This document shows positions 2,346 through 5,502 of a stretch of DNA of 64,000 nt, piece after piece (the stretch's first letter is position 1; each line of letters begins with the position of its first letter). The stretch is from contig JBBTBW010000006.1 in assembly GCA_038043525.1 (NCBI GenBank), positions 77,442-141,441 on the forward strand. Direction: 5' to 3'. The notes under the pieces were generated by a model. The model was not told the origin of the DNA. It was given only the letters and a program-made list of their open reading frames with translations, and made no database searches. The position numbers and the translations under genes are program-made. The DNA comes from Deltaproteobacteria bacterium. Its GTDB lineage: Bacteria > Desulfobacterota > GWC2-55-46.

Positions 2346-3122
2346 ATGAAAAGGACTAAGATGATGATCTTATTCGTATCCGCGCTGTCTCTTATTCTGC
2401 CGTCTATTGCCGCGGCGTATCCCAACGGGACCCCGATGTATGTTACCGACGCCGCGCCGTTTTGCGCCTCGTGCCACTCGGCGGCAAAGGCACAGTACAT
2501 GCCGGAACTGCCTGCTGAGGCGGCCAGAAAAGAGACCCCTGAGTTCAAGCATTATTCTCTTGTGAAGATGCCTGTGATGCCTTCGCCGTACGCGGAGCTG
2601 ACGGTTGAACAGAAGGAGAGGCTCATTAAAAATGCTCAGCAGATAGATTCCAGGTCGAGTGTCATTGTCAGCGCGCCGTTGAAGGCCAAGGCAGGTCAGA
2701 CCATAACCGTTACAGTCAAGGCGGCCGGAGGCAACGGCCCTGCGATAGGCATCATGCTTGTCGACGGGGCTTTGCGGTTTCAGTCGAGTCCGATCTCAGC
2801 TTCAGGCTGGACGATAGTCGGTGAACCTGAGGTGAGGGGGCAGGGTGGAAAGATACAGACCGAGTGGCTGGATAAGCGGCTTAAGGGCCTCTCCAGGTCC
2901 ATTAATTATGTAAATATCGAGGGGCAGGCCTTTGATCCGTCTAAAGAGATATACCCTGAGGCAACGGTGGTCTACACCTTGCGGGCGCCTTCTCAGCCCG
3001 GAGTCTATGTGATAGCCGCAGCATTTTTGTACGGCACAGAGAACGCCGAGTCAGCAGGTTTTTTCCAGAGGCCGTCCGGGAGGATCCTTTTTTCTGAGGA
3101 GGCCGGGGTGAAGGTGGAGTAG
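2346..3122 (+). CDS. Secreted putative monohaem c-type cytochrome / Ig-like domain protein
   Basis: Signal peptide (MKRTKMMILFVSALSLILPSIAAA) followed by a single CxxCH (CASCH). The remainder is beta-rich. Confidence 0.4.
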   Translation: MKRTKMMILFVSALSLILPSIAAAYPNGTPMYVTDAAPFCASCHSAAKAQYMPELPAEAARKETPEFKHYSLVKMPVMPSPYAELTVEQKERLIKNAQQIDSRSSVIVSAPLKAKAGQTITVTVKAAGGNGPAIGIMLVDGALRFQSSPISASGWTIVGEPEVRGQGGKIQTEWLDKRLKGLSRSINYVNIEGQAFDPSKEIYPEATVVYTLRAPSQPGVYVIAAAFLYGTENAESAGFFQRPSGRILFSEEAGVKVE

Positions 3123-3185
3123 TCTCGGGCAAGGTCCGACAGAGGTTCTTTATAGCAGGCGCAGGTTTTTTCAGGCTTAACGTTA

Positions 3186-3236
3186 ATACAAAGGCCTTAT
3201 TGCGGGCGAGAGCGCCCGCAATAAGGCCTTTGTATT
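3186..3236. terminator. Perfect 51-bp palindrome (24-bp arms) between convergent genes, acting as a bidirectional terminator
   Basis: aatacaaaggccttattgcgggcgagagcgcccgcaataaggcctttgtatt is self-complementary. It lies between the stop of 2346..3122 (+) and the stop of 3286..3459 (-). Confidence 0.6.
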
Positions 3237-3285
3237 TCGCGGTCCTCTTCGGACCGTATTTTTAATGCATCTACGGCAGTCCTGC

Positions 3286-3459
3286 TCAGTTGGCCTTTTC
3301 CAGGCCTTCGACCATCTCAACGAACATATTCGTCCTGATCGTCGTCTTTTCGCCGCAACCCGGGCATTCTAGGATCTTACCGATAGTAAGTTCTTTAGCC
3401 TTTTTCTTGAATTCCTTCTGACATGCAGGGCATGTGATGTTTATTATTACGTCAGCCAT
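3286..3459 (-). CDS. Small zinc-ribbon protein (CPxC...CPGC)
   Basis: MADVIINITCPACQ...ECPGCG has two CxxC pairs. A strong RBS (AAGGAG) sits 8 nt upstream of the ATG at 3459. The longer ORF in the track (to 3546) lacks an RBS. Confidence 0.55.
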   Translation of the reverse strand: MADVIINITCPACQKEFKKKAKELTIGKILECPGCGEKTTIRTNMFVEMVEGLEKAN

Positions 3460-3678
3460 TGTAGTACTCCTTTGATTTGATATTATGAATTTAACATAAA
3501 ATACGGTTCGAATGCAAATCAGGTATATAAAAGGGTCGTGTCCCATGCGGCAAGCTCTTTTTTTTTAGGCTATGATCTGATGATTTTGAACGGGTTGGCT
3601 GGCTTATGGCCATCTTACACCCACGGCGGTATGGAAGGCCTGTTAAAATGCTGGTTCAATTTTGTAAATTGAACACTT

Positions 3679-3741
3679 GGACTCCGTAATCCCTGTCAGG
3701 CCACGGACTTGGGGCTTAGGTTGCGAGCTTGAACCCGCAGA
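3679..3741. repeat. Left copy of a 63-bp imperfect direct repeat (about 90% identity) bounding an AT-rich insert
   Basis: ggactccgtaatccctgtcaggccacggacttggggcttaggttgcgagcttgaacccgcaga matches 4793..4855 with 6 mismatches. Confidence 0.8.
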
Positions 3742-3884
3742 GAATATGTCGGCTTAAATTGACTTTATCAGTCTGTTGAAGTATTTTATCCTGTAAGATC
3801 CTGCAACTTTCTATACAGAAAGAAACAGCTGTGTTTGCCTTTTTATACGGACTGTATAATTGTTGTTATGCATAACGAGGGAGC

Positions 3885-4385
3885 ATGGAAGAGTTTCTGA
3901 ATCAGATTGAGGATTCTTACAAAATTGGTCACTTCTACCTAGCATTGTTCTGTTGTCTTACTCTTCCCGACATTTGCGGGGCGATATCGTCCGACGACGG
4001 AATAGCAACTGGTCAAAAGTACAAGAACTGGTTTAATACTTACGTTGCACCAAATTATGGAGGGAATTTCAATGGAAGCAACTGCTATGCGTTCAGGTGC
4101 GCGGCTCTACACCAAGGTAGGTCTGATCACAGGGATCTTGGTTACGCGAGGATAGTTTTTCTAGTTCCAACCGCTACAAATGAATCGCTCATGCATAACA
4201 ATGTGTTAAACGACTCACTTAATCTAGACGTAGTAGCGTTTTGTCATGATATAGTCGGTGCGGTTCGAACTTGGATGCGCTGCGAAGCGTCGAAGCCGGT
4301 CTTTCAAAGAAATATGGCAACATTTTTAAAACGCCATGAAGGTGGGCTTGAACCATATATCGTTGGTACCGACGTGTTAAGTTAA
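3885..4385 (+). CDS. Hypothetical protein (166 aa) inside the AT-rich insert
   Basis: Clean ORF, low GC relative to its surroundings, and no recognisable motif other than an Rx4H dipeptide pattern (RCAALH). Confidence 0.5.
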   Translation: MEEFLNQIEDSYKIGHFYLALFCCLTLPDICGAISSDDGIATGQKYKNWFNTYVAPNYGGNFNGSNCYAFRCAALHQGRSDHRDLGYARIVFLVPTATNESLMHNNVLNDSLNLDVVAFCHDIVGAVRTWMRCEASKPVFQRNMATFLKRHEGGLEPYIVGTDVLS

Positions 4386-4399
4386 GAGGAGAAAGCTTC

Positions 4400-4732
4400 A
4401 TGCCAATTTACGAATATGAATGCCCAAGTTGCAGCGCGCGCTTTGAGGAACTACGAAAAATAGCAGAACGTGACCAATTGCTTCGGTGCACAGCCTGCGG
4501 ATCAAACGTAGTTCGCGTTTTAAGTTCTCCTAACCTTTTGTTGAATGCGAATAGCAGATCGAGCAAAACCCTAGGGTCATCAGAGTCAGTTGTGGCTGAT
4601 GTTCAGATCACGAACGGCACCTTTAAAAACTCTAACATTGGCATAAGTCTTCCAGAGGGTGCGAAGGTTACGATGAAGGGTAGCAAATTCGAGAATGTTA
4701 AGACTCCGGTGGAGTTTAGAAAGAAGAAGTAA
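4400..4732 (+). CDS. FmdB-family zinc-ribbon protein with a low-complexity tail
   Basis: The N-terminus MPIYEYECPSCSARFE...CTACGS is the canonical FmdB/CxxC-x17-CxxC zinc ribbon. A GAGGAG RBS sits upstream and the gene starts 15 nt after the preceding ORF. Confidence 0.65.
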   Translation: MPIYEYECPSCSARFEELRKIAERDQLLRCTACGSNVVRVLSSPNLLLNANSRSSKTLGSSESVVADVQITNGTFKNSNIGISLPEGAKVTMKGSKFENVKTPVEFRKKK

Positions 4733-4792
4733 TAGCGTGAACGTTGCTACGCATAACCAATCGGTTCCTTCGTCGCTTTGCTTTTTTATGCT

Positions 4793-4855
4793 GGAATCCG
4801 TAATCCCTGTCAGGCCACGGACTTGGGGTTCAGGTTGCAAGCCTAAACCCGCAGA
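4793..4855. repeat. Right copy of the 63-bp direct repeat
   Basis: ggaatccgtaatccctgtcaggccacggacttggggttcaggttgcaagcctaaacccgcaga. Confidence 0.8.
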
Positions 4856-4880
4856 CAGGTTCGCGGCCAAAGCGCGCGTA

Positions 4881-5351
4881 TCAGTCTTCGTCCGGGACCT
4901 TGCAGCCTATCATGGAGAGGAAGTTTCTCTGCTCGGCGGAGAGCCTGTGCTGGCAGACATACCAGCTGACGGTGTGGATGCGCACCCAGCCTATCTTCTC
5001 AAGCTCCGCGACCTTCATCCCAAGGACGCAATGCGCAAGCATGTCATGTAGCCAGGCAGGGCATCCGTAGAACCGCCCTTCCCTTGAGAGCCAGCCTGAG
5101 ATAAGCGTCTGGTTGTGGAGCGGCGTCTTCTTCCAGTCGAGTTCGGTTATGTGGAATACCTCGACCGTCGCGTCTATGACGTCTTCCGGGTGCTTCTCAC
5201 GCCAGAGGCTCTTGACTATGTTCAGCCAGTGCTCGCCCTTATCAAGCATCCAGAAGAAAGGCCTGGGCTGTTCATCCTTTCTGATATGGGGAGAGACAAG
5301 ATGATATATGAGTTTTTCTTCGTTGTGCATCCTGTGTCTCCGCTCCATAGC
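4881..5351 (-). CDS. Hypothetical protein
   Basis: The ORF at 4881..5459 would overlap tRNA-Phe, so the internal Met (MERRHRMHNEEKL) at 5351 was chosen as the start. No family was recognised. Confidence 0.4.
   Translation of the reverse strand, partial: AMERRHRMHNEEKLIYHLVSPHIRKDEQPRPFFWMLDKGEHWLNIVKSLWREKHPEDVIDATVEVFHITELDWKKTPLHNQTLISGWLSREGRFYGCPAWLHDMLAHCVLGMKVAELEKIGWVRIHTVSWYVCQHRLSAEQRNFLSMIGCKVPDED

Positions 5352-5426: not shown

Positions 5427-5502
<76 letters not shown>

Follow-up and report, generated by a model that had tools for sequence, protein, structure and literature searches.

A small lower-GC insertion in a deltaproteobacterial genome carries a conserved gene pair encoding a putative HEPN-like RNase and an FmdB-type zinc-ribbon protein

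Two small genes lie between two core genes within the stretch of deltaproteobacterial DNA analysed here (the window, 64 kb in total). The first encodes a 166-aa protein and the second a 110-aa protein, and both open reading frames are as described in the initial annotation, except that the gap between them is 14 nt and not 15 nt. GC content is 0.39-0.46 over positions 3751-4800 versus 0.52-0.59 in the flanks, in agreement with the earlier description of a lower-GC segment. The genes are bracketed by two direct repeats that were first reported as 63 bp long and about 90% identical; direct repeats they are, matching at 58 of 64 positions (91%), but each is 64 nt long, and their starts are 1114 nt apart. 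The features of the locus are as follows, with L023 being a copy of the module in another genome.

3286-3459, minus strand: left flanking core gene, encoding a 57-aa DUF7836 zinc-ribbon protein (PF25206, E 5e-7); outside the insert
3524-3677, no strand: lineage-specific spacer, in which the acquired or replaced DNA begins; homology is lost between 3524 and ~3583
3678-3741, plus strand: left 64-nt repeat copy, with two small hairpins and a 32-nt core common to the right copy
3742-3804, plus strand: 63 nt that separate the left repeat from the common module, with a weak promoter-like site at 3759-3787; no homology to L023
3805-3884, plus strand: module upstream region, 92% identical to L023 over 3805-3880; travels with the module
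3885-4385, plus strand: 166-aa HEPN-like protein, putative RNase effector or toxin; key residues R71-C72-x3-H76 and D29
4400-4732, plus strand: 110-aa FmdB-type partner, putative antitoxin, regulator or sensor; Cys4 zinc ribbon, linker and conserved tail
4733-4791, plus strand: module 3' tail; L023 homology ends exactly where the right repeat starts
4792-4855, plus strand: right 64-nt repeat copy, ending 2 nt from 4857/4858, where homology to the empty sites restarts
4881-5249, minus strand: right flanking core gene, 122 aa; outside the insert
5427-5502, minus strand: tRNA-Phe (GAA), a neighbour outside the repeat and the insert

Relative to close relatives, the segment is a genuine insertion, as had been claimed. 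On six contigs from relatives (L013, L016, L017, L019, L021 and L022), with flanking genes that are 90-97.6% identical to the window at the nucleotide level, the neighbouring genes are joined directly by a spacer of 190-219 nt and the module is absent from the same site. The identical 57-aa DUF7836 protein is encoded on 23 or more contigs, some with the insert and some without it. A natural experiment is available here, in that near-identical strains of a single groundwater system have this chromosomal site either occupied by the islet or empty. The DUF7836 protein also matches the YgiT-type zinc-finger model TIGR03831 below threshold (E 0.13). The tRNA-Phe gene, which was placed at about 0.6 kb, is 572 nt from the right repeat, is also found at this place in L013, an empty-site genome, and is not part of the repeat.

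The edges of the insertion do not coincide fully with the repeats. In alignments, the stretch without homology to the empty sites runs from about 3524/3583 to 4857 (~1.3 kb). The repeats had been taken as the bounds of the insert, and this is true of the right copy, which abuts the host junction (2 nt), but the left copy is set back by 95 nt or more from the edge of the non-homologous stretch. One repeat copy had been anticipated at an empty site, yet BLAST finds zero copies in the six empty sites, and shuffle-controlled local alignment of the repeats and their neighbouring segments with the spacers of L013, L019, L021 and L022 gives no significant similarity. Nor is the lineage-specific spacer at 3524-3677 significantly similar to the spacer cores of these four. 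Given the empty sites without a repeat copy and the extent of the non-homologous stretch, the simple picture of attB duplication is not confirmed.

The two genes are conserved as a pair that moves horizontally. Both, with a spacer of 12-15 nt, are found in Stieleria varia, in one MAG each of Smithella, Pirellulales and Myxococcales, and on several unassigned metagenome contigs, in contexts that are unrelated to each other across phyla. The pair is present in every close-homologue locus that reaches far enough downstream (L001-L003, L023-L027, L031, L066-L068 and L151), and a single natural fusion of the two genes is found in P0024. Both genes evolve under purifying selection (dN/dS of 0.10-0.22 for the first gene and 0.24-0.81 for the second), with the dN of the partner two to three times that of the first gene. 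Homology of the window to other module copies is confined to 3805-4792 or less, and the repeats are not common to its copies in other genomes. In L023, L024, L025, L067, L068 and L151, the surroundings of the module show no conserved element ends. As read from the sequence, the region 3805-3884 holds a putative promoter of the pair, with a perfect TATAAT at 3855-3860 and a ribosome binding site (GAGGGAG) at 3877-3883, both upstream of the 166-aa ORF, plus inverted motifs (TATACAG/CTGTATA) at 3811-3817 and 3852-3858.

The 166-aa protein was initially described as belonging to no known family. It indeed has no match in Pfam (even at E<=1), NCBIfam or PADLOC, but it does match a family of unknown function, PHROG 18591 (E 6.6e-37). 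Among 105 family members, R71 is the sole invariant residue (105/105), followed by H76 (103/105). Residue 29, within the helix at 17-35, is acidic in 100 members (D in 94, E in 6); at position 72, 99 members have Cys and four have Asn, and C31 is kept in 95, with Ala substituting in eight. The AF2 model is confident (pLDDT 96.6, pTM 0.91), and it places Rx4H at the C-terminal end of the helix at 64-77, with an insert between helices 2 and 3. According to the HEPN survey, in which Rx4-6H ends helix 3, the motif and the insert are expected at these positions (PMC3710099). The Rx4H motif, previously judged too weak to call, is thus placed by a confident model where HEPN domains have it, and no other feature of this large family is as conserved; the conserved acidic residue of HEPN helix 2 is also present. 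However, the residue after the Arg, which is usually N, D or H in HEPN domains, is Cys in most members here. A profile search of the PDB retrieves no HEPN chain, and a Foldseek search of the PDB returns nothing at E<2. In its fold neighbourhood, HEPN matches are more numerous than DinB-like ones and have slightly higher scores. From its sequence and model, we regard the protein as probably a toxin that cuts RNA, from a phage-associated family that has not been described. It would be a metal-independent HEPN-like RNase with an active site of R71 and H76, probably formed across a dimer.

It is also conceivable, if unlikely, that the 166-aa protein is not a nuclease but a metal-binding or regulatory four-helix bundle (DinB-like, using Cys31, Cys72 and His76), and that the pair is a regulatory or stress module. 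All three residues are well kept and C72 and H76 are one helical turn apart, the family consists mostly of solo genes, which is awkward for a toxin, and FmdB proteins are annotated as putative regulators. Yet it is R71 alone that is invariant, while C31 gives way to Ala and C72 to Asn, the canonical HEPN residue, in some members. The motif position, the helix-2 acidic residue and the insert between helices 2 and 3 all fit the description of HEPN domains (PMC3710099), the HEPN matches outnumber and slightly outscore those to DinB-like proteins, and an effector is a better fit to the phage moron and defence-island contexts described below.

The assignment of the second protein to the FmdB-type zinc ribbons is borne out by matches to FmdB/Zn_ribbon_8 (PF09723, E 1.1e-14, and TIGR02605, E 2.9e-16). 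Residues 1-41 make up a Cys4 zinc ribbon; a linker that is variable and disordered follows (45-69), and the last 40 residues are beta-rich and hardly vary. When the partner is modelled alone, the zinc ribbon is confident and the rest has low confidence, including the C-terminal 40 residues (low pLDDT). The conserved C-terminal peptide, carried on the disordered linker, most likely binds the RNase and restrains or regulates it, and the zinc ribbon might bind nucleic acid or a trigger. In the literature on FmdB with HEPN, antitoxin or defence, no description of this gene pair was found. The dedicated partner, together with the natural fusion in the subfamily, makes this a directly testable effector-partner pair.

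The wider family is large, with 1761 clusters at 50% identity, and has members on at least 89 IMG/VR contigs, in 44 cultured phages and on 13 plasmids. Viral members are located antisense within or beside lysis cassettes, and adjoining integrases. Chromosomal neighbours include AbiEii, DUF3800 with HNH, resolvases, an integrase with IS91, and a HicB-family gene immediately upstream. The family is frequent in phages at moron positions and beside defence and mobile genes, and its absence from Pfam, NCBIfam and PADLOC makes it invisible to current defence-finding pipelines. Distant members are mostly solo, without an FmdB partner, which means that the family is not an obligate toxin-antitoxin pair and makes constitutive toxicity of the enzyme unlikely. 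In at least five lineages (WOR-3, Bhargavaea, Solirubrobacterales, Stieleria and the deltaproteobacterium studied here), members lie between host-specific direct repeats of 27-90 nt; the direct repeats that bracket L036, L037 and L050 contain terminator-like hairpins. The Stieleria repeat is multi-copy, with 3-4 copies in 5 kb, beside a Y1 transposase. Flanking direct repeats occur at four of 24 family members versus three of 48 control positions at other loci, a difference that is suggestive and not significant, and at 0 of 35 control positions in this window.

The two repeat copies in the window share a core of 32 nt without mismatch (3683-3714 and 4797-4828), with the differences between the copies concentrated in one arm. 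The core occurs twice in the window against zero expected (100 shuffles), and no partial copies of the 64-nt repeat were found elsewhere within the 64 kb. A 23-mer from the core has no match in 185,579 species genomes, JGI metagenomes or IMG/VR, from which it follows that the window's own genome is absent from those collections. Downstream of both repeats, and in register, is the 9-mer TATCAGTCT (3766-3774 and 4879-4887); its in-register score is reached in 6-8 of 2000 shuffles, and the stop codon of the right flanking host gene falls within the second occurrence. Each copy folds as two small separate hairpins. With its flanks, the right copy has a folding z of -2.3 to -2.9 relative to shuffles; the flanked left copy is no more stable than shuffled sequence (z of +1.6 for the plus strand and -0.3 for the minus). 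The possibility that L008 is a circle was rejected, as a k=31 graph break at the identical 32-nt core explains it. Several ~1.14-kb contigs of other homologues were likewise rejected as repeat-bounded units like L008, L066 showing that the similar length is a coincidence.

The 64-nt repeats would have arrived with the insert, and they are most simply explained as attL/attR-like scars, left when a 1.11-kb unit integrated in Campbell fashion into a spacer allele unsampled among the relatives. The identical 32-nt core, the right copy flush with the host junction, and the in-register 9-mer containing the host stop codon are consistent with such scars. Nine phmmer queries retrieve no recombinase or transposase in the 64-kb window, and neither the genes up to 6 kb on either side of the insert, nor the insert itself with its two small ORFs, include a recombinase. 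The initial annotation had suggested a miniature integrated element with an integrase that was lost or acts in trans; the insertion stands, but the att test fails and the window has no recombinase-like ORF. As the empty sites lack the repeat, the left copy is off the boundary and no recombinase is found, an integrated element with att sites is one hypothesis among several. A broader version, which we consider rather improbable, would have a miniature cassette of ~1.1 kb, lacking an integrase, recombine at the repeats and be mobilised in trans within a wider cassette-type habit distinct from integrons, with a new single-effector anti-phage RNase and an optional zinc-ribbon sensor or antitoxin as its cargo.

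Alternatively, the repeats may be not scars but a low-copy intergenic repeat containing hairpins (REP-like or terminator-like), a reading that is possible though doubtful. It would suit the two small hairpins of each copy and the folding of the right copy with its flanks, the hairpin repeats around L036, L037 and L050, the clearly multi-copy Stieleria repeat and the empty sites that lack a copy; islets with only toxin-antitoxin genes and without mobile-element genes have been proposed to spread by homologous recombination (PMC13617665). Against this, the repeat occurs just twice in 64 kb and partial copies are absent, the core 23-mer is missing from all the collections searched, and flanking repeats are rare at the control positions, both in the window and at other loci. 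The right copy also ends at the host junction, and L023 homology stops at its start, as a recombination joint predicts. That the unit is an integron-type cassette between two attC sites (a CALIN, without an integrase), mobilised in trans by an integron integrase, seems very improbable. The length of 64 nt and the hairpin potential are attC-like, the repeats bracket a recombinase-free unit of ~1.1 kb, and integrons are known to carry toxin-antitoxin and HEPN cassettes, with an integron-associated HEPN structure included in the survey (PMC3710099); but an attC identity was rejected by inspection of the box order and by folding. The R'' (RYYYAAC) and R' (GTTRRRY) boxes are not in the required order, the sole GTT/AAC pair is a 26-nt hairpin with the order reversed, and there are two separate hairpins instead of one long imperfect hairpin. 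In addition, the cargo appears to have its own promoter region, module copies elsewhere lack such sites, and an integrase-like ORF is not detected within the window. We give equally little credence to the repeats being two copies of a small ncRNA gene or cis-regulatory RNA with the ORFs merely between them. Hairpin potential is present, and substitutions in the second hairpin partly keep pairing (U-G to G-C, C.A to U-A), although one double change (U-G to C.A) breaks a pair and the left copy folds like shuffled sequence. Rfam has no match to the repeats at gathering thresholds or at E<=10; homologues of the repeat are absent from all three collections, and in relatives the repeat sequence is missing altogether.

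Taking the putative attL/attR-like scars together with the cargo, we slightly favour a reading of the locus as an acquired islet comprising a HEPN-like RNase effector and a cognate zinc-ribbon antitoxin or regulator. Foreign, lower-GC DNA of ~1.3 kb (~3524/3583-4857) occupies the spacer between two core genes beside tRNA-Phe, with the cargo (3805-4791) as a self-contained two-gene operon that appears to have its own promoter region. As predicted from sequence and model, the module is most likely a toxin-antitoxin or anti-phage system. Loss of the partner or a phage cue would lead the pair to shut down translation, in the manner of a toxin-antitoxin or abortive-infection module. A toxin-antitoxin or defence module had been suggested before, and this is still the best-supported reading, but the solo members indicate that the pairing is not obligate. 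HEPN RNases recur as effectors in CRISPR, toxin-antitoxin and abortive-infection systems. If the repeats are recombination sites, the locus would show how tiny defence or toxin-antitoxin islets move without a recombinase of their own.

Several known systems resemble the pair in part. Tha-Ith is a tail-activated HEPN anti-phage system of Staphylococcus aureus prophages, with an Rx4H HEPN-type RNase (here predicted) that is restrained by a small partner (here putative), and its genes, with their own promoter, lie in or next to the late or lysis genes of the phage, on the opposite strand, where viral members of the present family are similarly located (PMC11087260). However, Tha has 301 aa, with a C-terminal HEPN domain and no sequence similarity to the 166-aa protein, and its inhibitor has no zinc ribbon (PMC11087260); the window copy, moreover, is chromosomal and outside a prophage. 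RAZR (PD-T7-4), the ring-activated zinc-finger RNase, combines a zinc finger at its N-terminus and a DUF4145 HEPN domain at its C-terminus in one polypeptide (PMC13017515), whereas here there are two genes in the reverse order. The window pair lacks a DUF4145 or PADLOC match, and its partner has the additional conserved beta-rich tail. Like type II toxin-antitoxin systems, the locus has two small, adjacent and co-oriented genes that are kept as a pair. It differs from the HEPN-MNT systems (type II/VII) in having a zinc ribbon instead of a nucleotidyltransferase as the partner, and in a 166-aa protein that has no Pfam HEPN match and mostly solo relatives. In common with MqsR-MqsA, the putative toxin gene is upstream, the partner has an N-terminal CxxC...CxxC zinc domain, and palindromes over the putative promoter suggest autoregulation. 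MqsR, though, is an RNase of the RelE fold, MqsA carries an HTH domain at its C-terminus, neither is homologous to the window pair, and TIGR03831 does not match the 110-aa partner. Integron cassettes and CALINs are also small recombinase-free units between similar direct repeats of ~60 nt, but the attC box order and single hairpin are not seen here, the cargo has its own putative promoter region, and no integrase is found nearby. The toxin-antitoxin islets integrated by homologous recombination at core genes are tiny islands between core genes that carry only a TA-like pair and no mobile-element genes, and their presence varies among close relatives, as in the case of this insert; flanking direct repeats of 64 nt are a feature of the window that is not part of that description (PMC13617665).

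The locus reads as a small acquired islet that encodes a new putative family of HEPN-like effectors together with a cognate zinc-ribbon partner, as judged from sequence comparison and structure prediction. Its interest is greater in the proteins than in the repeats that frame them. The features in the window are:

3286-3459, minus strand: 57-aa DUF7836 zinc-ribbon protein, left flanking core gene
3678-3741: direct repeat, left copy, 64 nt
3885-4385, plus strand: 166-aa HEPN-like ORF, between the repeats
4400-4732, plus strand: 110-aa ORF, an FmdB/Zn_ribbon_8 protein, between the repeats
4792-4855: direct repeat, right copy, 64 nt
4881-5249, minus strand: 122-aa core gene, right flank
5427-5502, minus strand: tRNA-Phe

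The initial annotation had described 63-bp, roughly 90% identical direct repeats around a lower-GC segment with two small genes 15 nt apart and a tRNA-Phe about 0.6 kb away. The tRNA, the genes and the repeats are all present, with the gap corrected to 14 nt and the repeat length to 64 nt (58 of 64 positions match; starts 1114 nt apart), and GC is indeed 0.39-0.46 between the repeats versus 0.52-0.59 outside. The copies share an identical 32-nt core (3683-3714 and 4797-4828), which occurs twice in the 64-kb window against zero expected in shuffles, and no partial copies were found elsewhere in the window. No Rfam family matches the repeats, and scans of the genome, metagenome and viral collections gave no hit to a 23-mer of the core. 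In a second strain variant (contigs L005, L007, L008, L010 and L015) the left repeat differs by a single G-to-A loop substitution that brings it nearer to the right copy (92% versus 91%), which could be polymorphism or gene conversion between copies.

Relatives were found by exact look-up of the 57-aa protein, which returned two kinds of contig, identical to the window or module-free. In the module-free contigs (L013 from GCA_040960315.1, L016, L017, L019, L021 and L022) only 190-219 nt of spacer separate the 122-aa gene from the 57-aa gene that comes next. Their flanking genes are 90.7-97.6% identical to the window, and they therefore belong to the same or a sister species. Every contig carrying the exact 166-aa protein shows the context of the window. 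The segment is thus an insertion relative to close relatives, about 1.3 kb standing in place of about 130 nt. On the left, 95% homology to the empty sites runs through 3523 and then decays, and weak resemblance may continue as far as about 3583; on the right, homology returns at 4858, 2 nt beyond the repeat. Both flanking proteins have weak database matches, the 57-aa protein to the PADLOC candidate PDC-M14A (E 1e-5) and the 122-aa protein to PHROG 30541 (E 3.8e-7; no Pfam family). The former is protein-identical across lineages only 95-97% identical in DNA. Between its gene and a convergent 258-aa gene lies a perfect 24-nt inverted repeat with a 4-nt loop (3185-3236), probably a bidirectional terminator. 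On the Hainich contig L007 no gene is called at 2953-4450 (window about 840-2330), where other strains have a PAS histidine kinase; this may be a frameshift or variant.

How the repeats arose is a separate question. The initial annotation likened the segment to a miniature integrated element or cassette and proposed, as a check, to look for an empty site with a single repeat copy. The insertion and the mobility of the gene pair (see below) agree with that reading, but the roughly 130-nt spacer core of the relatives has no significant similarity to the repeat, 3524-3677, 3742-3804 or 4733-4791, so the empty sites hold zero copies. An element with att sites is therefore a possible reading that fails its simplest test with the available genomes, and no recombinase-like ORF was detected in the 64-kb window. 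The repeats would fit, though not prove, the joints of a Campbell-type recombination into an unsampled spacer allele, because the core is identical, the differences between copies cluster in one arm, and the 9-nt TATCAGTCT stands both 24 nt past the left repeat and 23 nt past the right one, where it takes in the stop codon of the 122-aa gene. In 2000 shuffles the score of this shared 9-mer was reached only 6-8 times, so a degenerate part of the repeat may run on into host sequence. An attC site was also considered and rejected, the repeat being by inspection without attC box order and single-hairpin architecture.

Other family members likewise sit between direct repeats (27-90 nt overall), namely in two Stieleria strains and, with repeats of 27-84 nt, at four further loci (L030 5909-5935/6599-6625, L036 5763-5822/6946-7005, L037 5730-5813/8378-8460 and L050 4444-4496/5436-5488). 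They are host-specific, and several include the terminator hairpin of the upstream host gene. The excess over controls (4/24 targets versus 3/48 control positions, and 0/35 control positions in the window) is suggestive only and not significant. In Stieleria varia, copies of a repeat of about 90 nt enclose 4.2 kb of DNA that contains the module (L001 3600-4407 and 8541-8630; L002 4346-4425 and 8541-8630). The two strains differ upstream of this repeat, and in one of them it adjoins a Y1 (IS200/RAYT-like) transposase. Being multi-copy and next to the transposase, the Stieleria repeat is probably REP-like.

The two cargo genes form a pair that is both conserved and mobile. A word-based search gave 42 close clusters of the 166-aa protein at 40-100% identity, among them the Deltaproteobacteria source genome, Smithella and Stieleria varia (Planctomycetota); in one cluster, stop-codon loss has joined it to the FmdB protein as a single 271-aa chain. 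The FmdB gene follows within 12-28 nt in every close locus readable far enough downstream, in unrelated contexts (pilO/pilN, marC, a hydrolase, IS3, a tRNA 3' end). Homology to the closest foreign copy, L023 (88% nucleotide identity), is limited to 3805-4792, beginning 64 nt past the left repeat and stopping exactly at the start of the right one. It takes in 80 nt upstream of the pair (3805-3884) with a perfect TATAAT (3855-3860), inverted heptamers and an RBS. In other copies (L024, L025, L065-L068 and L151) homology spans only 3865 to about 4760, and no flanking repeats were found around them. Compared with four other copies, the 166-aa gene has a dN/dS of 0.10-0.22 and its partner one of 0.24-0.81. 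A tRNA 3' end lies 150 nt upstream of the L023 copy (1-28) and a tRNA-like stretch adjoins that in L028 (5794-5964), echoing the tRNA-Phe 0.57 kb away in the window.

The 166-aa protein, initially assigned to no known family, has no match in Pfam, NCBIfam or PADLOC; it does match PHROG 18591 (E 6.6e-37), itself a family of unknown function, and an exhaustive HMMER search gave 1761 clusters at 50% identity (E<=1e-3). Across 105 aligned members (31-86% identity) only R71 never varies; H76 is present in 103, D/E29 in 100 and C72 in 99 (Asn in 4), and P28, W49 and C31 are likewise highly conserved. The AlphaFold2 model is very confident (pLDDT 96.6, pTM 0.91), with helices at 2-13, 17-35, 43-53, 64-77, 116-134 and 138-144 and a small beta insert at 89-115. 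Helix 64-77 ends, on its C-terminal side, in R71-x4-H76 and comes after an insert behind helix 2, which carries acidic residue 29. The HEPN survey describes the same layout, in which helix 3 ends in the motif, an insert separates helices 2 and 3, and helix 2 has an acidic residue (PMC3710099), and the Rx4H pattern that had seemed too weak to call is thereby strengthened. In BFVD, a near-identical fold occurs in Arthrobacter phage Nandita (TM 0.92).

The 17 close homologues of the partner are all about 109-120 aa, with the four zinc-ribbon Cys invariant, residues 44-68 variable and the last 40 residues most conserved (QITNxTFEN..GISLPEG..V.MKGNKFKNVKTPVEFRKK). Of the AlphaFold2 model only the zinc ribbon is confident (pLDDT 85-90), while the conserved tail has a pLDDT of about 50 and the linker is predicted to be disordered. 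Antitoxins are usually built in this way, with a flexible linker between a folded N-terminal domain and a conserved tail unable to fold by itself, which makes the partner a candidate antitoxin. A zinc ribbon linked to a divergent HEPN domain has a precedent in RAZR (PMC13017515).

Among the family members in 39 species genomes, spanning at least ten phyla, only the closer relatives (L026, L027 and L031) have the FmdB gene beside them, more distant members being solo genes. Because most relatives are solo, a classical addiction module seems less likely than a regulated abortive-infection effector whose partner is specific to the subfamily. The islet's own promoter would drive a putative HEPN-like RNase and the zinc-ribbon protein, which would restrain the RNase or link it to a signal; non-specific RNA cleavage and a growth stop would then follow from the partner's loss or from a phage cue.

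Relatives are also encoded on at least 89 IMG/VR contigs, 13 plasmids and 44 cultured phage records (35 from Arthrobacter phages, others from Gordonia, Acinetobacter, Escherichia and Bacillus phages). One phage member is antisense between holin and endolysin genes (L072 5992-6498) and another adjoins amidase and holin genes (L091 6001-6507). Those of Arthrobacter phage Nandita (L149 3821-4510) and Gordonia phage Bowser (L150 3926-4486) lie beside tyrosine integrases, directly upstream of a "lipase" gene. These positions are moron-type, similar to the one occupied by the prophage HEPN RNase Tha, which has a small inhibitor as its partner (PMC11087260); the recurring link to lysis genes could mark a moron hot spot or a lysis-connected role. 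Elsewhere, neighbours include an AbiEii toxin (L045), DUF3800 and HNH (L054), serine recombinases (L046 and L049) and a tyrosine integrase with an IS91 transposase (L034). A Myxococcales MAG has an arrangement of three genes, in which a HicB-family, antitoxin-type gene (L031 3149-3445) precedes the HEPN-like gene at a distance of 22 nt.
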